Of a DNA stretch of 64,000 nucleotides, positions 2,325-21,145 are shown in pieces; positions within the stretch are counted from its first letter, which is position 1; the number at the start of each line of letters is the position of its first letter. A program made the translations under genes and the position numbers. The notes beneath the pieces are model-generated. The model ran no database searches, was not told where the DNA came from, and saw only the letters and a program-made list of their open reading frames with translations. Source of the stretch: Promethearchaeota archaeon (GTDB taxonomy: Archaea > Asgardarchaeota > Lokiarchaeia > Sigyniarchaeales > SOKP01); assembly GCA_019058445.1 (NCBI GenBank), contig JAHPZA010000006.1:640001-704000 (forward strand), read 5' to 3'.

Positions 2325-3164
2325 TTACGTCTTTAAGATTACATTTAAAAGTATTGGAAAATTTTTTTCGGCTCCATGGATTAGAAATAATCTATTTTTA
2401 ATAGGAATTACTGCTTCATTCCCAGCCAAAATCCATTCTCTTTGGATTTCTTCCTTTATATAGACTTTAGCACCTACATATCCATCAAATGTCGCATCTT
2501 CTATCTTTAAATCTATAAAACCTGGAATATCATGATTCCTAATTTCATATTCAGTTTTGCTTTTGTATGTTGCTAAGGCAGCTTTTATCAAGTTTTCATC
2601 AGTTTCAATATTTCGGTCATACTCAAAAATTATAAGTCCACAATCATTAGTAGGAAATCCTTTAGCAGCTACTAATTCATAATCAAAAATAGTTCTACTA
2701 AGCGATTCAGAACGTTCAATGACTTCCGATTTAATCCCCCATTTACGCTCAATAAGTGGTTTTAAATATTTTATAAAACCAGGATGAACATTTTCTAAAA
2801 TTATTTCTTTTTTCTCTTGAAATATTTTTTCAAGATTATCCCCTATGAAAATATAAGAGTCTTTAAGTTGCTTCAATTCGGTTTCATTCTTGTGGATGAT
2901 TTTATCTAACATTTTAATCGGTGAATTTGCGACATAGTGCGTTCTTTTAGGTTTTTTCTTGACTTCAATACCCTCTACCCAACCTTTTCCAATTAACCTA
3001 TCCAGAATTCCATATATGGTTGTGCGACCTATTTCTAGATTATCCTTTAACCTTCCGACCATATCACCATTCGAACCCTTCTCTAATAACGCTAGATATA
3101 CTCTTGCTTCTTCTGGAGTTAAACCAAACTGTATGAGTTTTTGAATGTATTCTTCATTAACCAA
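2325..3164 (-). CDS. TrmB-family wHTH transcriptional regulator with an uncharacterised C-terminal domain
   Basis: N-terminal LIQFGLTPEEARVYLALL...RTTIYGILDRLIGKGWV is the TrmB HTH signature. The C-domain is homologous to that of 5467..6762. Confidence 0.85.
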   Translation of the reverse strand: MVNEEYIQKLIQFGLTPEEARVYLALLEKGSNGDMVGRLKDNLEIGRTTIYGILDRLIGKGWVEGIEVKKKPKRTHYVANSPIKMLDKIIHKNETELKQLKDSYIFIGDNLEKIFQEKKEIILENVHPGFIKYLKPLIERKWGIKSEVIERSESLSRTIFDYELVAAKGFPTNDCGLIIFEYDRNIETDENLIKAALATYKSKTEYEIRNHDIPGFIDLKIEDATFDGYVGAKVYIKEEIQREWILAGNEAVIPIKNRLFLIHGAEKNFPILLNVILKT

Positions 3165-3219
3165 TTAAATCACGTTGATTTAGGAGTAAAGTCTGTTAAA
3201 CACTTATAATTTTGAAAAA

Positions 3220-3250
3220 TATATAAATGTTGTCACTAGGTGACGACAAC
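3220..3250 (-). promoter_or_regulatory. TATA box plus TTGTCAC-N3-GTGAC palindrome (candidate TrmB-type operator)
   Basis: tatataaa 3220-3227 (TTTATATA on the minus strand) followed by gttgtcactaggtgacgacaac. Same layout as at 8451-8481. Confidence 0.6.
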
Positions 3251-3318
3251 TTCAATATATTTAAATATAAACAAAATTTTTCTCTAAATAGTAAAAACTA
3301 ACTTAAAGAAGTGAAAAT

Positions 3319-3999
3319 ATGTCTAAAAGCAAAAAAAGAATTCCTGAAGGAGAGGCAATTTTAGATATGCCTGAATTAACCATGGAAGAGCTAAATGAGA
3401 GCTTTAGAAAACGAATGTGGGAATACAAACAGTTTGTGAAGTTCCTTATAAAGGGAGTAGGAATTAAGGATTATTCTAAAATATTAGAAATCGGTCCGGG
3501 ACCAGGATGGATTACAATTCTTTTAGCAAAGGCAAATCCCACATTAAAAATAACCGGTTTGGAAATATCTGAAGATATGATCAGGGTAGCAAATGAAAAC
3601 AAAGAAAATGAGGGAATATCTGATCAAATTGAATTCATTCTTGGAGATGCAAAGAATATGAGTGAAATAAAAGATAAAACTTTTGATGCAGTGATCTCTC
3701 ATGATAGTTTACATCACTGGGAAGATCCCATTAGAGTTTTTAATGAAATTCAAAGGGTGTTAAAAGAAAATGGTGTGTTTTGTATTAAAGATGGGCGAAG
3801 AGATATTGGTTTACCCGCTAAATTTATATTTAATATAGCAAAGCTTTTCATTTCTAAAACCATGAGCTATTATTGGAAAACGTCAATAATGGCCGGATAT
3901 ACTCCTGAAGAATTAAACCAAATATTAAATCAGACCAAATTGAAAAATAGATATGAATTAAAAACCGATTTATTTGATTTAATAATTCATAATAAATAA
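3319..3999 (+). CDS. Class I SAM-dependent methyltransferase (UbiE/Methyltransf_11/25-like)
   Basis: ILEIGPGPG motif I; FDAVISHDSLHHWEDP; RVLKENG. Confidence 0.9.
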   Translation: MSKSKKRIPEGEAILDMPELTMEELNESFRKRMWEYKQFVKFLIKGVGIKDYSKILEIGPGPGWITILLAKANPTLKITGLEISEDMIRVANENKENEGISDQIEFILGDAKNMSEIKDKTFDAVISHDSLHHWEDPIRVFNEIQRVLKENGVFCIKDGRRDIGLPAKFIFNIAKLFISKTMSYYWKTSIMAGYTPEELNQILNQTKLKNRYELKTDLFDLIIHNK

Positions 4000-4052
4000 G
4001 AAAAAATAAAAAATTAAAAAACTCTTTTTTATGCTAATTTATTACTAGTTTA

Positions 4053-4763
4053 TTATTCTTCCTTTAGGAATCTCCTTTTAATCATTTCCGGCATCATAAA
4101 ACCGATATAAAACATAATCGCGCTTATGACTAATATCACGCGAAAAGGTGGAAAAGACAAAACTGTTTCTAAAGCCGCTCCTATCAGATATATCAGAAAT
4201 GCTAAGAGTAAGAATTTTCCCTTTAATTTAATCTCGGGTTTCTCTGATTGTAATGATCTATAAGCAAAATAAAAACCAGATATGATAAATATCACCAAAT
4301 CCAATAGAAGATAAATAATTAAAAATACTCCTAAATCGATATTAACTGGGTCTACAAGCACTCCTAAGACAGAAATATCTGAAAATAGGAAATATAGGAT
4401 TAATACCTCGAAAATTAGAGCATAGATAATATATGCACTAATTAGGGGTTTGAAATTCTTGATTCTAGTGAGGTCGTTTAATGCCACAAACCATACAGTT
4501 AGCGTTAATGAAATAAATGAAAATGTAATTAAAATATACCAAAAGATTGATAATCCGACACCATTAAATAAATAGACTAAGAAACTAATCGACGATCCCC
4601 ACCAGGGTTTACTCATCACTATCCACGTTATTCCTACTAGAATAAGAGTTTTTTGTTTGAATTCTCTATATTTTAACGCAATTTTTAAGCCTATTATTAC
4701 CGAAAAAATTACAAAAAGAAGGCTAAAAAGACCATTTATCACAATAGTAGTATCAATTACCAT
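4053..4763 (-). CDS. Lokiarchaeal multi-pass (~7 TM) membrane protein
   Basis: About seven hydrophobic segments. SEKPEIKLKGKFLLLAF loop of the kind seen in expanded Loki 7TM families. Confidence 0.75.
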   Translation of the reverse strand: MVIDTTIVINGLFSLLFVIFSVIIGLKIALKYREFKQKTLILVGITWIVMSKPWWGSSISFLVYLFNGVGLSIFWYILITFSFISLTLTVWFVALNDLTRIKNFKPLISAYIIYALIFEVLILYFLFSDISVLGVLVDPVNIDLGVFLIIYLLLDLVIFIISGFYFAYRSLQSEKPEIKLKGKFLLLAFLIYLIGAALETVLSFPPFRVILVISAIMFYIGFMMPEMIKRRFLKEE

Positions 4764-4893
4764 GTTAGCTTATGCCTAAGAGTTTAATGTTTTTTACAAA
4801 TACCATGTTTTATTTGTATTTAAACCTATCTTGAACGAAAACGGCTTAAAAAATAAATTTAAAAGTATTAAATAAAGATAATTTAAAAAAAAC

Positions 4894-5451
4894 TCAATAT
4901 TCAAGAGAAAATGTATTTTTAATCCAATCTTCAATATCCTTATTTGAATTGCTTCGGGGTTGTGCACCTTTATAAATATTAATTTGTCGCTCTTCTTCCA
5001 TTTTCTTGGAAAGATCCCGAATTTCTGTTATATTCCCATTTTCAACTTGAATCTCAACCACCGTTCCAAAAGCCATTGGCCGCTGAAATCCCATATGGAC
5101 ATACATTTGCTGGATGAAATCTTTTGCTAACAATACTGTTCCTGTGAATTCTGCTTTCAGATTTAAATTTTGATAGCAATAGTCAAATATAGAATTACCC
5201 GTCTCTTTAGCCGTTATAGGTTCGACTCCATTAATCTCAGGAGGTTTTTTCGCATTTACTAACATTCCATCTAAGATTAAACGGTCGTTTGTAAATTTAT
5301 ATTTCATCACATACCCCCGCCAGCATGCTGTACATCTAAAATAAGATTGTATATCAAAATCTTCAGGAATGGGCAACTTACCACCCTTAAGACCCACAAG
5401 GGAAAATTTATCTCCATTATATAAAAATTCATCTGGGATTTGTGCTGTCGT
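4894..5451 (-). CDS. Conserved hypothetical protein (MTAQIPD...TACWRGY family), probable ACG start
   Basis: The frame stays open upstream of the track's GTG (5397) to ACG-ACA-GCA-CAA-ATC-CCA-GAT at 5451. GGAGG lies 8 nt upstream of the ACG. Confidence 0.75.
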   Translation of the reverse strand, partial: TTAQIPDEFLYNGDKFSLVGLKGGKLPIPEDFDIQSYFRCTACWRGYVMKYKFTNDRLILDGMLVNAKKPPEINGVEPITAKETGNSIFDYCYQNLNLKAEFTGTVLLAKDFIQQMYVHMGFQRPMAFGTVVEIQVENGNITEIRDLSKKMEEERQINIYKGAQPRSNSNKDIEDWIKNTFSLEY

Positions 5452-5466
5452 GATAAAAACCTCCCT

Positions 5467-6762
5467 CTAATATAGTTTTAAAATAATATCCATTATGTTT
5501 TGAAATTTCTCTTCTGAACCCCATATTACATATATTACGTTATCGATTGGTATTGCAACTTCTTTTATGGCAACAACCCAATCATGACCAATGTTATTTG
5601 CTATTTTACTACCCTCTTCAAACTTGAGAAGTATTGATGCTCCTAGATATTCTTGGACTTTAGTATATTCGATTTTCATCTCTTCAAAACCAGGGATGAC
5701 ACCCTCATTTTTTAATTTTTCAATCTGTTCTTCAATTTTATTATATACTAGATCTAGTTTATCACGAACTCGCAACTCATCAATTATATCTTTATCATAT
5801 TCGAAGAATATAATTCCGAAATCTTTTTCAAGCCCCATTATACCTAAAACATCAATGTCAAAGACTTCCCTACCCAAAGATCGAGAATCTTTATAACGTT
5901 CAGAGATATCTTCCCAGCCATTGCTAATGTATTCGTCTATTAACAGTCTGAAACTTTTAAGAATTTTTATCTCTTCTTCCTTTTCCTGAATTATTTTATT
6001 TACCAAGTCACCTATAGGCCTTGCTACATAAATTTGTGTACCTCTTGGAGTTTCTAAAACCTTCTCAACCCAATTTTTTTTCAAAAGCCGTTCTATTATT
6101 CTATATATTGTAGTTCTTTTTATAACTAATTCTTTATTCAAATTACCTACTGTTTCTCCTTTTTCTCCTTTATTAAGTAAGGTTAAGTAAACTCTTGCCT
6201 CATCCGGACTTAATCCAAATTTCTGCAATCCTAATGTCTGCAATATTTTGGAAGTATCAAATAAAAATTTAGTAGAAACCTCTTTGGTAAACGGATCTTC
6301 TTTACCTAATAAAACATCTGGGGCCATATAAGGTTCTTTTGTACTCATTAATCTTAATGTTCTTGAAGATAGAGTTATAACATCAATTAGCTGAACTAAT
6401 GTATCCCCTTCATCCAGAGAAATTTTACAAATTATCCCTCTTTCCTCATCTTTAAAACCAACTATAAAATCTTTTCGATTTGAAGAAAATGCAACTAGCT
6501 TGTCAAAGGTATTTTGTATAACTCTATAAATTATACCCATTATCTGAATTGTTTTTCCTTTCTCAGATTCCCATACAGAATTGATATTTTCTATATCTCC
6601 ACCAATATCCCAATTTAATGTAGAGTATATTAAATTGTATATTATTCTCTTCTTTTCTTCCTCTTCTCCCTTTTCTTCTTCAATTAATTCTATAATTGCT
6701 ACAGAATTTATATTTAAATCAGATTCCAGAAATGACTCTGCAATTTTTTCGTAGTTGGTCAT
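5467..6762 (-). CDS. Profilin-like domain fused to TrmB-family wHTH regulator and a shared C-terminal domain
   Basis: N-terminus VAII...IYSTLNWDIGGDI...VW...IQIMGIIYRVIQNTFDKLVA...IVGFKDEERGIICKI matches the Asgard profilin pattern. Centre LQKFGLSPDEARVYLTLL...RTTIYRIIERLLKKNWV is a TrmB HTH. Start at ATG 6762 is favoured by the TATA at 6802-6809; the track gives 6789. Confidence 0.8.
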   Translation of the reverse strand: MTNYEKIAESFLESDLNINSVAIIELIEEEKGEEEEKKRIIYNLIYSTLNWDIGGDIENINSVWESEKGKTIQIMGIIYRVIQNTFDKLVAFSSNRKDFIVGFKDEERGIICKISLDEGDTLVQLIDVITLSSRTLRLMSTKEPYMAPDVLLGKEDPFTKEVSTKFLFDTSKILQTLGLQKFGLSPDEARVYLTLLNKGEKGETVGNLNKELVIKRTTIYRIIERLLKKNWVEKVLETPRGTQIYVARPIGDLVNKIIQEKEEEIKILKSFRLLIDEYISNGWEDISERYKDSRSLGREVFDIDVLGIMGLEKDFGIIFFEYDKDIIDELRVRDKLDLVYNKIEEQIEKLKNEGVIPGFEEMKIEYTKVQEYLGASILLKFEEGSKIANNIGHDWVVAIKEVAIPIDNVIYVIWGSEEKFQNIMDIILKLY

Positions 6763-6869
6763 ATAGAGAGAAATTCTTTTACTTTTCATATGATCATTTC
6801 GTTATATAATTATAGTATAAATAAAAAAATAAAATAATTTACCCGCGAATTTTTTGATTTTATAGTAGG

Positions 6870-7070
6870 CTATTTGTATTTGTTTTTGAATTTTTCTTTT
6901 AAGTCTTTCAGCAAATCTTTCATACACTCGTTTTCTTTAGATCTTTGAATACGTGTAAAATCATTTAGCATTGAAAATCGCTCTGTTGGGGTTTTTTTTG
7001 CATTCTTTTGTTCATCTGCTTCATCTGATAAAAGTATGCAGGGAATACCATCTATCACTCTTATTTTCAC
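6870..7070 (-). CDS. Small hypothetical protein immediately downstream of actin
   Basis: GTG at 7070 preceded by a GGGTGAGG SD-like sequence. Ends in the amphipathic helix MKDLLKDLKEKFKNKYK. Confidence 0.6.
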   Translation of the reverse strand: MKIRVIDGIPCILLSDEADEQKNAKKTPTERFSMLNDFTRIQRSKENECMKDLLKDLKEKFKNKYK

Positions 7071-7112
7071 CAAATTCCTCACCCTAATTTGATATTTAAG
7101 ATAATTTGGATC

Positions 7113-8252
7113 TTAGAAGCATCGATGGATTACCTGAGGTCCCATTTCTTTATATTCGCGCCGAGTGATCCACATCCTATTAAAAGTCTTCAGAGATGCC
7201 AAGATCGACCCCCCGATCCACACAGAATACATTCTTTCGGGAGGGGATATGATCCTAACATCTACAGAATCCGGAATCTGTTCCTTAATTTCTTTAGCTA
7301 AACGCTCCTTGAATCCCGGATACATAGTAGAACCTCCCGAAAGAACGATATTCGAAAAAAGATCTCGCCTTAAATCTACATCACACTCGTAGATCGCCCC
7401 TACTATTAGATCATCTAATGGTTCCAGTTCTTTTCCTACAGCCGACGGATTGAAGAAACATTCGGGTGCGAGAAACCTCTCCACACCTACATTTATAGTT
7501 TCTCCATCAGGTAACATGAAACTTTTCTCCATTCCTGCCACTTTTTTGGAAAGCATTACCTCCTTTTCCGGATCTAAAGCGACATAACAGAGTTTTTCTT
7601 TTATGTCCCTGACGATCTCCATTTCGGCTGAACTCATAAGGGTCACTCCTTTTTGCCTCAATAGCCTCTGCAAATATCTTGTAACATCACGCCCTGCTAG
7701 ATCGACTCTCTCGATTGCATGACTTAACGCAAAGCCTTCAAAGATCGGTACAATATGGGAAACTCCATCACCGATATCTATGACCGTTCCCGTTACACGT
7801 CCTGAGGCATAAAGAGATAATACTGCCTGAGTTGCTACATATAATGCAGGAACGTTAAAGGTTTCAAACATGATTTCGCCCATTCTCTCCCTATTTGATC
7901 TCGGATTTAATGGAGCTTCGGTTAAAAGTACCGGATGCTCTGAAGGATCTATTCTTAAGTCTGTGTAAAATGTATAATGCCAGATTCTCTCCATAGAATT
8001 CCAGTCATCGACAATTCCATGCTCTATGGGAAAATTTAGTTTCATAACTCCCGAGAGTTCCGCAGCCTCCTCTCCGATATAATATTCTCTGGTAAAGTGT
8101 TTATACTCGGAAAGGATATTGTGATATTTTGGTGTGCCGATCATAGTAGGAAATACTGAACGAGGTTGATCCTCACCCGCATAACCGTTTTTTGAAATAC
8201 CTGTGCCGTTGTCTAAGACGATTGGTTTTGAAAGTTGCTCATGATCTGCCAT
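7113..8252 (-). CDS. Asgard actin (Lokiactin-like)
   Basis: DNGTG, FPIEHGIV, HPVLLTEAPLNP, FETFNVPALYV, QAVLSLYASGR, DIGDGVSHIVPI, LSGGSTMYPG, PPERMYSVWIGGSILASL, C-terminal IHRCF. ATG at 8252 has GGAGG upstream; the track's GTG 8267 overlaps that SD. Confidence 0.97.
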   Translation of the reverse strand: MADHEQLSKPIVLDNGTGISKNGYAGEDQPRSVFPTMIGTPKYHNILSEYKHFTREYYIGEEAAELSGVMKLNFPIEHGIVDDWNSMERIWHYTFYTDLRIDPSEHPVLLTEAPLNPRSNRERMGEIMFETFNVPALYVATQAVLSLYASGRVTGTVIDIGDGVSHIVPIFEGFALSHAIERVDLAGRDVTRYLQRLLRQKGVTLMSSAEMEIVRDIKEKLCYVALDPEKEVMLSKKVAGMEKSFMLPDGETINVGVERFLAPECFFNPSAVGKELEPLDDLIVGAIYECDVDLRRDLFSNIVLSGGSTMYPGFKERLAKEIKEQIPDSVDVRIISPPERMYSVWIGGSILASLKTFNRMWITRREYKEMGPQVIHRCF

Positions 8253-8450
8253 AATTTTTTCCTCCACTTTAATATCTTATTTTTTTTAGATTTTTATTGA
8301 GGAATCAAGCATGAATTTGATGATAAAAGTATTGTTTAGATTGACTTTGCCTAAAATCATCTACCGCAATATATTATCCAAATTCAGTATTGATTCCTTT
8401 GTTATTTTTTCCAAATTTTTATTACTTGATAATATAATAAAAATTCTACC

Positions 8451-8509
8451 TATATAAATCTTTGTCACCCTTCCGTGACAATCATGACACATGATCATAA
8501 CATGTGATT
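8451..8509 (-). promoter_or_regulatory. Putative actin promoter: TATA box plus an array of three palindromes
   Basis: tatataaa 8451-8458; TTGTCAC-N6-GTGACAA 8462-8481; ATCAT-N5-ATGAT 8481-8495; ATCAT-N5-GTGAT 8494-8508. Confidence 0.6.
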
Positions 8510-8808
8510 TAACAATCGAGGAAAAGACATTTATTGATTCAAAAATTGCAGAATCAATAGGATAAATATATTTTAAACAGTATAGACAAAATTCTTTGAG
8601 GGAAAAATTAAAATTACATATAATTTTTAAAAAAAATTGAACTAGGTAAGAAGATAGCAAAAATTACTTAATCTTTAACGTCAAATTATTTAAATAGTAG
8701 TGAAAACATTAATTTTTAGGATTAGTTCTATATTTAATGATCTACCTATCAGCATCATTATCATTACTTGATATTTCTTATTAAAATAATGAGGTTAATT
8801 TAATAACT

Positions 8809-19558: not shown

Positions 19559-19753
19559 ACATTTTCACTCTCTATATTTTTTTGATACTATTTTCGCCAA
19601 ATAACTTAATTTCTATATAGATGATTAAGTTTATTTTTCATTTCTATTTAATTTCATTTAATTCATCTTAATATACAAATTTAAATTAGTAGTGACAACA
19701 TAAAAGTAATCATTTATATGCTAAAAATGAATTAAATCAAAATTTTAAAAATT

Positions 19754-21145
19754 ATGACAGAAAATACAGAAGAAACGAGTGAAATTAATCATTCCACTTT
19801 AGCAATGTTATCGTTCAATTGTTCTTTTTTTGGAACGCAGTTAATTAGTCTCATATATAATTCCCGTTTAATTTTTTTCTATGAAATTGAGGTTGGATTA
19901 TCTATTTGGCTAATAATGCTTGGTTATGCAATTTATACAGCGTGGGATGCATTCAATGATCCCTTCATGGGGCACCTTTCGGATCGACCAAACAGGTTAT
20001 GGAAAAAATACGGAAAACGCTTCCCATGGATTTTTGGTTCTTCAATTCTCCTATGTATGGCATTTTTCTTGATATTCATTCCACCAGATCCTAAAGTGAA
20101 TGAATGGGCAACATTTACATGGTTTTTATGCGTGCTTTTCTTGTTTGATGGTTTACTCTCCATATTGATGATAAATCGAAGTGCTCTATTACCAGATAAA
20201 TTCCGAACTGATAAAGAACGTAAAAAATTAGCCGGATTTTTTGTCCCCTTCTTTACTATTGGACTCATAATAGGAATGATGCTTCCTCCCTTGTTCATAA
20301 CTTACGGAGATAGAACTTCATACGTTTTTATGGCAATCATCGCGAGCATTATAACTGTCATTTTCCTTATATTATCTTTTCCAGGCATGAAGGAGGATGA
20401 CATAATGATAAAGCGTGCTTTTACTGCTGCTCAAGAGGAAAAAACCCCCTTTTTTGGAACGCTAAAAAAGGCATGGACGCAAAAAAATTTCAGGATATTT
20501 GTCTTAAATAGAATACCCATAATGGCTGCTAGCATTCTTTTTGTTGTGAGCACTCCCTATTATGTACGTTATGTTTTGAAAGGAAAAGCCATCATGGAAA
20601 TTTATCTTTACGCCGCTTACTTAATTCCTGGCGTGCTTTTGGTACCTTTATGGATGAAAGTAGGAAAAAAGATGGGATATGTGAAACTTTACCCAATATT
20701 ATGCTTTTTAATTGGAATTGCATTCTTATTTTCAATATTTATATTTGAGATTGTATCCGCAGTGATTTGTGTCTTATTTTTGGGTGCGTTTTATGGAGGA
20801 TTAAATACCATATCGTCCCCAATTGATGCAGAAATGTTTGATGAGGCTGCGGTATTACATGGAGAACGCAAAGAGGGCACGTATTATGGACTACAATCAG
20901 TAATTGGAAAGGTAGGACAAGTACTCTACATAGTTATCTTAGCAATAATCCATACTTTAACAGATTTTGATCCAGAACGAGGCACGAACCAAACAGATTT
21001 AGCAATTTGGGGGATTCGGCTTCAATTTGGATTACCTACGGCAATCTTCATGTTTATTGCCGGATTTGTTTTTTGGAAGTGGTGGGATTTAAAACCTGAA
21101 AAAGTAGCTCAAATCCATGAAAAGTTAAAGCAGATGAATCTTTAA
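19754..21145 (+). CDS. MFS transporter, GPH (MelB-like) family
   Basis: WDAFNDPFMGHLSDR, GKRFPWI, ERKEGTYYG; 12 TM. Confidence 0.92.
   Translation: MTENTEETSEINHSTLAMLSFNCSFFGTQLISLIYNSRLIFFYEIEVGLSIWLIMLGYAIYTAWDAFNDPFMGHLSDRPNRLWKKYGKRFPWIFGSSILLCMAFFLIFIPPDPKVNEWATFTWFLCVLFLFDGLLSILMINRSALLPDKFRTDKERKKLAGFFVPFFTIGLIIGMMLPPLFITYGDRTSYVFMAIIASIITVIFLILSFPGMKEDDIMIKRAFTAAQEEKTPFFGTLKKAWTQKNFRIFVLNRIPIMAASILFVVSTPYYVRYVLKGKAIMEIYLYAAYLIPGVLLVPLWMKVGKKMGYVKLYPILCFLIGIAFLFSIFIFEIVSAVICVLFLGAFYGGLNTISSPIDAEMFDEAAVLHGERKEGTYYGLQSVIGKVGQVLYIVILAIIHTLTDFDPERGTNQTDLAIWGIRLQFGLPTAIFMFIAGFVFWKWWDLKPEKVAQIHEKLKQMNL

Follow-up and report, generated by a model that had tools for sequence, protein, structure and literature searches.

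Two matches to one palindrome, TTGTCA-N8-TGACAA, stand at promoters about 5 kb apart in a 64,000-nucleotide (nt) stretch of a Promethearchaeota archaeon genome (G000:C6:640001-704000, called the window here; host genome 4.6 Mb, 31% G+C). One (O-act) precedes a cassette of an actin-family gene and a gene for a profilin-TrmB fusion protein, and the other (O-279) lies between the divergent genes for a profilin-less TrmB-like protein (TrmB279) and a methyltransferase. These palindromes are probably the operators of the two paralogous TrmB-like regulators, which would most likely repress, and their autoregulation would include a spare actin. In the proposed mechanism, both proteins belong to one Lokiarchaeia-type TrmB-like subfamily, with a 279-aa form and a 440-aa form carrying an N-terminal profilin domain. 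A regulator dimer would read TTGTCA-N8-TGACAA through a common RTTIY helix, cover the transcription factor B recognition element (BRE, approximately -33 to -53), and most likely block transcription factor B (TFB) and TATA-binding protein (TBP), resulting in repression. Because the fusion gene is in the actin cassette, its autoregulation would also set spare-actin output, and TrmB279 would autoregulate from an operator located 10 nt from the TATA box of the divergent methyltransferase gene.

An earlier note on this DNA described a TATA box followed by TTGTCAC and a GTGAC arm at both promoters, and all of the strings it quoted are present where it placed them. At TrmB279, tatataaa (3220-3227) is followed by tg, TTGTCAC (3230-3236), tag, and GTGAC (3240-3244); at actin, tatataaa (8451-8458) is followed by tct, TTGTCAC (8462-8468), ccttcc, and GTGACAA (8475-8481). 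The differing spacers (3 vs 6 nt) had been regarded as a reason for caution, but both sites fit TTGTCA-N8-TGACAA, and in this register the discrepancy disappears. The 3-nt pairing at 3230-3244 combines the correct TATA-proximal arm with a wrong partner, a GTGAC inside the N8 spacer. A repeat finder also returned an 18-nt imperfect inverted repeat (3217-3234 / 3245-3262) that is centred on O-279 and reaches both divergent TATA boxes.

GTCAC/GTGAC is a rare word in this genome, approximately threefold below composition (1379 on both strands, 166 outside long open reading frames, ORFs). Only three GTCAC-N0-15-GTGAC palindromes were found, and the two outside long ORFs, both intergenic, are these sites. 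The pattern TTGTCAC-N0-12-GTGAC occurs in the whole genome at these two loci only, and GTGACAA-N0-6-TTTAWATA has exactly two genomic matches, again at these sites. With up to one mismatch, TTGTCA-N8-TGACAA has two matches in the window compared to 0.23 expected, a count reached by 1 of 100 dinucleotide shuffles. Strict scans of the genome and scans with one to two mismatches (spacers 0-15) found no further promoter-associated site and no excess at N8. The candidate regulon proposed earlier therefore keeps the motif at both promoters and is confined to these two promoter regions; a wider regulon in this genome is ruled out by the genome-wide scans.

TrmB-type regulators of Thermococcales act from palindromes near core promoter elements. 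Pyrococcus furiosus TrmB represses from a palindrome at the malE BRE/TATA, and the TrmB site in P. furiosus and Thermococcus litoralis is TACT-N3-AGTA (PMC4158304). TrmBL1/Tgr repress or activate depending on the position of their motif, TGM, which is TATCAC-N5-GTGATA (PMC4158304). By analogy with P. furiosus TrmB at malE, repression by BRE occlusion is the most likely mode here. Transcription start sites (TSS) were predicted by setting the TATA octamer at -30 to -23, which places the actin TSS at ~8428, the TrmB279 TSS at ~3197 (leader ~33 nt, operator -33 to -52), and the methyltransferase TSS at ~3290 (leader ~29 nt, operator -41 to -60). At the actin and TrmB279 promoters, the proximal arm is only 2-3 nt upstream of a consensus TATA box, so a bound dimer would cover the BRE, in agreement with the earlier placement of the palindrome over that element. 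Genome-wide, the bases just upstream of TATA boxes are approximately 80% A/T, and arms with G/C there are atypical. Strong consensus TATA boxes fit repression. A conserved palindrome overlapping the BRE/TATA of the unit that encodes the regulator, as expected of an autoregulated repressor, is present relative to the predicted TSS in 9/9 actin cassettes and at TrmB279 of the window.

Comparative analysis used 41 genomes of the family (~150 Mb), a second family sample of 61 genomes, and 19 genomes from the other three families of the order. In the 41 genomes, TGTCAC-N6-GTGACA has seven matches, compared to none for the reversed pattern that served as specificity control. Six of the seven precede actin paralogs, 2-3 nt away from the TATA box, and each of these paralogs is followed by a profilin-TrmB fusion gene. 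At the seventh (G055), an auxiliary half-site, the operator, TTTAAATA, a leader of ~150 nt, and a Shine-Dalgarno (SD) sequence precede a gene starting MVENYNEF, which resembles linked-actin N-termini; the contig stops eight codons into it. The same motif is in the same place upstream of actin paralogs in G003, G011, G035, G041, G054, and four metagenomic loci. Each of the nine linked-actin promoters contains an N8 site (0-2 mismatches; the G010 copy is degenerate), and its TTTAWATA box stands 2-3 nt away from a TGACAA-type arm. That contact is through an additional GTGACAA half-site in G047 and through an inverted TGTCACAA in G010. The arms are conserved in sequence and the spacers vary freely. 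Over four genera plus metagenomic loci, the motif is retained between flanks that no longer align. Compared to G003, a block of ~80 bp containing the TATA-like box and palindromes is ~90% conserved, and its flanks are poorly conserved. Phylogenetic footprinting, which had been suggested as a check, thus finds the motif kept at orthologous actin-paralog promoters, in G003 within this block.

The earlier note named actin as the target, and the gene does belong to the actin family, but it is a second paralog, and canonical lokiactin promoters generally lack the motif (22/24 need at least three mismatches to match it). The window protein is 95% identical to the product of one G003 gene and 77-84% identical to those of all other relatives and to its own genome's C2 copy. 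A maximum-likelihood tree gathers 29 canonical actins into one compact cluster (support 89/99, branches mostly <0.02). Nine TrmB-linked actins (the window and eight others) fall outside it on branches 5- to 20-fold longer, and they may share one origin (60% of bootstrap trees). By its sequence, the window actin is a fast-evolving second paralog and not the canonical lokiactin. Comparison of orthologous N-termini places its start at ATG 8252; a GTG at 8267 sits within the GGAGG Shine-Dalgarno. Two linked actins in relatives have disrupted reading frames. The G042 gene (L075, G042:C205, 1652-2719) is broken across frames, with only residues 6-218 aligning in one frame and seven stops in a naive read, and the G047 gene (L076, G047:C46, 2973-4121) contains a single in-frame TAA. 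Decay of these copies or errors in assembly may explain this.

The fusion protein consists of a profilin domain (residues ~10-150), a TrmB winged helix-turn-helix (wHTH, 188-256), and a non-canonical C-terminal domain. Scores against the TrmB Pfam model are 54.8 bits for the fusion and 44.8 bits for TrmB279, with a gathering cut-off of 25.6. The Pfam profilin model does not match the fusion, and Pfam returned nothing meaningful for the N-terminal and C-terminal portions of the two regulators. A ten-ortholog profile searched against PDB with hmmsearch matched LokiProfilin1 (5yed, 2e-11), LokiProfilin2 (5zzb, 1e-10), OdinProfilin (5zza, 2e-8), and 7pbh ("Profilin," 5e-6). In the AlphaFold model of the fusion, the N-domain has pLDDT 80-89, and the top five Foldseek matches are Odin and Loki profilins (TM 0.70-0.80). 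By homology and predicted fold, the N-terminus of the fusion is a profilin. TrmBL2 (5bpd, rank 48) was the only TrmB-type structure that Foldseek returned for the fusion.

Complex prediction for the linked actin with fusion residues 1-150 gave weak support, with a median score of 0.57 compared to 0.00 for the best control; our own alignments were used, and the calibration counts are approximate. The mark for this prediction was reached by 58/80 solved complexes and 2/110 mismatched pairs, but at scores of 0.60 or lower only 7 of the 80 solved complexes passed it, as did both passing mismatches. At least 92% of contacts agree between runs, and partner pLDDT is at least 77. Passing the mark may reflect likeness to solved Loki profilin-actin complexes rather than binding.

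The fusion gene is present in 9/41 family genomes and in 18/61 genomes of the second sample. Searches of 19 genomes from the order's remaining three families, four of them single-contig genomes, did not find it, so cultured models may be without the cassette. In the nine family genomes, it is downstream of the actin paralog wherever the contig is long enough. At least 106 cluster representatives belong to the fusion family, annotated only as TrmB, HTH, or hypothetical. Six distant fusion genes from metagenomic loci (36-48% identity) served as an out-of-sample set. Five are behind an actin gene, four of these with an ORF of 60-65 aa in between. Four of the five actin-linked loci carry a perfect TGTCAC-N6-GTGACA next to a TATA box; three of these sites are separated from TTTAAATA by 2-3 nt, and the 2-nt contact in L132 is provided by an additional GTGACAA half-site. 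The fifth (L134) has a degenerate variant as in G010. The sixth and most divergent gene (L130, JGI 3300009320 contig, gene 4001-5281, 36% identity) is behind a DHQS gene and has no operator upstream; without an adjacent actin, it indicates that the fusion family is not always actin-linked.

TrmB279 has a wHTH and the same non-canonical C-terminal domain as the fusion (48% identity in the HTH, 34% in the C-terminal part), and the RTTIY recognition helix is common to both. When TrmB279 orthologs were identified by protein homology first, 4/4 promoters carried an N8 site (TTGTCAtaaagtaaTGACAA in G008, TTGTCAtaaatttgTGACAA in G016, TTGTCAtgaagagtTGACAt in G017, and TTGTCAtgactaacCGACAA in G041). 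An N8 site is beside TrmB279 in 9/9 genomes examined (the window and eight others), and a methyltransferase gene neighbors TrmB279 in all seven of these nine that were checked. Orthologs of the window methyltransferase (57-65% identity) are beside TrmB279 in G016, G036, G037, G041, G043, and G049; they are directly divergent in five of these six relatives, and in G016 the gene is ~0.9 kb from the operator. On the methyltransferase side, TGACAA is followed after N10/11 by a TATA-like box in 7/8 TrmB279 loci (TTTAAATATA in six, CTTATATTTT in G037) and in G041. TTGTCA-N8-TGACAA has 14 matches in the 41 genomes compared to 4 for the control, five of them between TrmB279 and methyltransferase genes and three in front of actin paralogs. 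The TATA-to-start-codon distance of window TrmB279 (55 nt) is typical for the genome.

Presence of the two regulators helps to relate each site to its protein. Seven genomes have the fusion without a TrmB279 ortholog, at least six have TrmB279 without the fusion, and the two modules of the window are found together only in G000 and G041. Each operator tracks the regulator gene beside it, which is a signature of autoregulation. The recognition-helix core RTTIY-I--RL is common to both families, and two flanking residues differ: IGRTTIY followed by A or G in TrmB279 (exception G016, IKRPTIYK) versus IKRTTIYR in the fusion. In parallel with this helix difference, operator position 7 is C in 7/8 actin-type sites and T in 6/7 TrmB279-type sites. 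From these correspondences, we infer that the fusion is the likely regulator of the actin promoter and that TrmB279 mainly serves its own promoter and that of the methyltransferase. The earlier proposal of TrmB autoregulation and actin control is therefore strongly backed by comparative genomics, with the fusion, whose gene lies second after the actin gene in the cassette, as the likely actin regulator. The O-279 arm nearest the TATA box (GTGACAA) is of the actin type in the window, so TrmB279 could cross-talk in this genome.

Table 1. Coordinates of the features discussed (positions in the window).
Feature	Position	Strand	Remarks
Actin paralog	7113..8252	-	379 aa from ATG 8252; PF00022 E 2e-128
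Small ORF, 66 aa	6870..7070	-	Between actin and fusion gene; own SD
Profilin-TrmB fusion	5467..6789	-	440 aa, or 431 aa from ATG at 6762; PF01978 E 8.6e-15
TrmB279, 279 aa, TTG start	2325..3164	-	PF01978 E 1.1e-11
Class I S-adenosylmethionine (SAM) methyltransferase	3319..3999	+	Divergent partner of TrmB279
Operator O-act, TTGTCA-cccttccg-TGACAA (= TTGTCAC-N6-GTGACAA)	8462..8481		Perfect; about -34 to -53 from predicted actin TSS
Operator O-279, TTGTCA-ctaggtga-CGACAA	3230..3249		1 mismatch; common to divergent TrmB279 and methyltransferase promoters
TATA box of actin-paralog promoter, TTTATATA	8451..8458	-	3 nt from O-act
TATA box of TrmB279 promoter, TTTATATA	3220..3227	-	2 nt from O-279
TATA box of methyltransferase promoter, TTTAAATATAAA	3260..3271	+	10 nt from O-279
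Auxiliary palindrome upstream of actin, ATCATGacaCATGAT	8481-8495		Contains TGTCA/TGACA half-site
Auxiliary palindrome upstream of actin, ATCATaacatGTGAT	8494-8508
Predicted actin 5' leader, ~176 nt	8253..8428	-	Long hairpin ~8300-8398
Lone half-site TAGTGACAACAT	19690..19701	+	Upstream of MFS_2/GPH transporter (19754-21145)

Several observations weigh against the operator interpretation or limit it. Shared descent of the relatives makes their counts non-independent. The statistics for this genome taken by itself are suggestive but modest, not decisive. The proximal element is degenerate or inverted in G010 and L134 (TGTCACAA), and the G042 site has two mismatches. The canonical actin promoter of G009 has an N8 match with one mismatch, and a TrmB279 query found no ortholog of either regulator in that genome. 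This match is a perfect 16-bp palindrome, GTCAATTTAAATTGAC, with a TATA-like spacer, ~111 nt upstream of the aligned canonical-actin start (L027, G009:C2); the sister genome G006 does not have it.

The same proteins could bind the same operator and activate by recruiting TFB/TBP, so that the fusion would switch the spare actin on. We consider this unlikely overall, and somewhat less unlikely once binding is granted, where it is a live alternative. Activation from sites immediately upstream of TATA is known for TrmBL1/Tgr, Ptr2, and TFB-RF1 (PMC4158304), which also counts against repression. Next to the methyltransferase gene, 10 nt remain for the BRE between operator and TATA box, a typical activator geometry, and the auxiliary half-sites farther upstream would be compatible with activators binding cooperatively in arrays. 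However, the short gap between arm and TATA at the actin and TrmB279 promoters leaves the BRE covered, and the TATA boxes are of consensus strength (TTTAWATA). Archaeal promoters that depend on activators tend to have weak core elements, which counts against activation.

Another reading, which we regard as improbable, is that the operator is real and another, unlinked transcription factor reads it, with the TrmB-like genes as targets only. The G009 near-match at a canonical actin, where no regulator ortholog was found, is in its favor. However, the motif follows the presence of both regulator genes genome by genome, at their own promoters, and autoregulation classically shows as a conserved palindrome in the promoter of the regulator itself; furthermore, a fusion gene without adjacent actin (P0108) lacks the motif.

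Very improbable is a role of the inverted repeat as nucleic-acid structure (transcript hairpin, terminator of an upstream gene, or cruciform). The arms can pair, and the element in G041 and G055 follows the end of a co-directional gene by 30-60 nt; however, both flanking genes in the window diverge from it and no transcript need cross it, its arms are conserved in sequence and not by compensatory change while spacers drift, and a fixed TATA distance would be meaningless for an RNA hairpin. Least credible of all is chance or a functionless relic of a promoter duplicated with the paralogous regulator genes: the regulators are indeed paralogs and the within-genome statistics modest, but control patterns give 0-4 matches compared to 7-14, and the arms persist across four genera and metagenomic loci beside unalignable flanks. 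Repression by the TrmB-like regulators from their own operators is therefore the preferred reading.

The actin leader is unusually long, as TATA-to-start distances peak at 20-60 nt genome-wide. It contains a hairpin with a minimum free energy of -31.3 kcal/mol (z -3.77), and none of 200 dinucleotide shuffles reaches this stability. Orthologous leaders measure ~125-165 nt in seven of nine cases, and a hairpin forms in six of these seven (z -3.2 to -5.3). The stem sequences differ between genera (GGAATCAA/TTGATTCC in g1, AACGGA/TCCGTT in g3), and the intergenic regions, leader hairpin included, had no Rfam match at E up to 1. A long, conserved, folding leader fits a transcribed, structured 5' untranslated region, and the hairpin may be a post-transcriptional control element. 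The leader of ~175 nt suggested earlier holds from the true ATG at 8252, with indirect backing from the conserved long distance and the stable hairpin.

Two further N5-spaced palindromes reported upstream of actin were located (ATCATGACACATGAT at 8481-8495 and ATCATAACATGTGAT at 8494-8508). Both are present, but they are kept within the genus only; in G003 the first is intact and the second is broken. Other genera have instead extra TGTCAC/GTGACAA half-sites 9-25 nt upstream. A third conserved block at 8660-8700 (ACTATTTAAATaATTTGACGTTAAAG, minus strand) is common to G003 despite a different upstream neighbor gene, and it may represent the divergent promoter or belong to the actin cassette as an additional element.

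Genes around the two modules also recur or rearrange among relatives. The 66-aa ORF (6870-7070) has 30-64% identity to counterparts in G003, G011, G035, and G054, and 40% in L133. Downstream of the fusion gene (4053-5397, minus strand), orf167 recurs in L133 and L135 (62-64% identity) and the membrane-like orf236 recurs in G035, G042, G054, and L131 (~40%); HD-domain and YdjM genes recur nearby in out-of-sample loci. These recurring genes suggest that the cassette may exceed three genes. A link between methyltransferase and actin was considered and rejected: UbiE-type enzymes are near the cassette in two metagenomic loci, with 27% identity or no match to the window enzyme. The TrmB279-methyltransferase cassette stands between orf664 and orf236 only in this genome. 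In G002 (L082) and G003 (L031), orf664 and orf236 (or a remnant) adjoin without it, and G041 has the two modules on different contigs. As this arrangement is seen only here, the 5-kb closeness of the two operators is lineage-specific.

A half-site upstream of a GPH transporter gene had also been proposed as part of the regulon. The 12-mer TAGTGACAACAT is present at 19690, but regulon membership is unsupported, because the half-site is alone and has no counterpart at the nearest homologs. It has two genomic copies, and approximately one extra copy is expected from composition; the copy at 19690 has no partner arm and is 14 nt from a TATA box. No TGACAA/TTGTCA was found within 200 nt upstream of 7/7 nearest homologs, and the best outside match of the transporter is 47% identical. 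The MFS_2/GPH family is greatly expanded (34 matches here, 42 in G017, and 31 in G002), often in tandem (e.g., C3:290500-299385). The transporter, one of 34 paralogs, was therefore rejected as a regulon member, and on sequence grounds its half-site is probably outside the system.

The proposed regulators resemble TrmBL1/Tgr and TrmB in their PF01978 winged helix, in a palindrome next to or on the BRE/TATA, and in their proposed autoregulation. Actin-type sites have the TCAC/GTGA half-site core of TGM. They differ from TGM in spacer (N6, not N5) and in half-site (TGTCAC, not TATCAC), and the core here is TTGTCA, with the following C not kept at TrmB279-type sites. Unlike sugar-sensing TrmB/TrmBL1, the two proteins have no detected Pfam sugar-binding C-domain; no Pfam family matched fusion residues 255-440 or TrmB279 residues 85-279 at E up to 10. 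TrmB sugar regulons also differ from the present system, which comprises one or two promoters, includes a member with a profilin domain, and has an actin gene as its probable target.

Profilins are known in Asgard archaea as stand-alone proteins, including Loki profilin-1 (5YED/5YEE), Loki profilin-2 (5ZZB), and the Odin (5ZZA) and Thor (7PBH) proteins (Akil & Robinson 2018, via PMC13716822, PMC12993045). The N-terminal ~140 residues of the fusion are homologous to these (2e-11) and are predicted to have the same fold. The domain differs in being fused to a DNA-binding regulator, and its actin binding is predicted only. We tentatively suggest, at less than even confidence, that the profilin domain binds actin monomers (spare or canonical) and that binding alters operator occupancy, so that the cell would sense its own actin pool.

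In eukaryotes, the MRTF-SRF system places actin genes under control of the G-actin pool through RPEL motifs and a MADS box, with a coactivator acting on an enhancer-type element. The circuit proposed here resembles MRTF-SRF in logic only, as an actin-monomer-binding module would be coupled to actin-gene transcription. It differs in using a profilin and a wHTH in a probable repressor on the core promoter; the proteins are unrelated, and there is no evidence of common descent.

A literature search, which was noisy because "profilin" also matched "profiling," returned no published account of an Asgard TrmB/actin/promoter link or of a profilin-TrmB protein, and the recent Asgard actin-regulation literature checked has no mention of transcriptional control or a profilin-regulator fusion. 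Asgard actin regulation is currently discussed only at the protein level (profilins and gelsolins). New in the present analysis are the unified N8 operator, its placement at the TrmB279 and methyltransferase promoters, the position-7 difference, and the out-of-sample confirmation. The 20-bp operator gives a testable DNA target, through which actin sensing becomes addressable at the bench, and TrmB279 with its near-identical operator is a built-in control, with the same DNA-reading head and without the profilin module. If true, the actin-sensing circuit would be a prokaryotic counterpart of MRTF-SRF logic. The two promoters also offer a first experimentally addressable promoter/operator architecture for Lokiarchaeia-type archaea.

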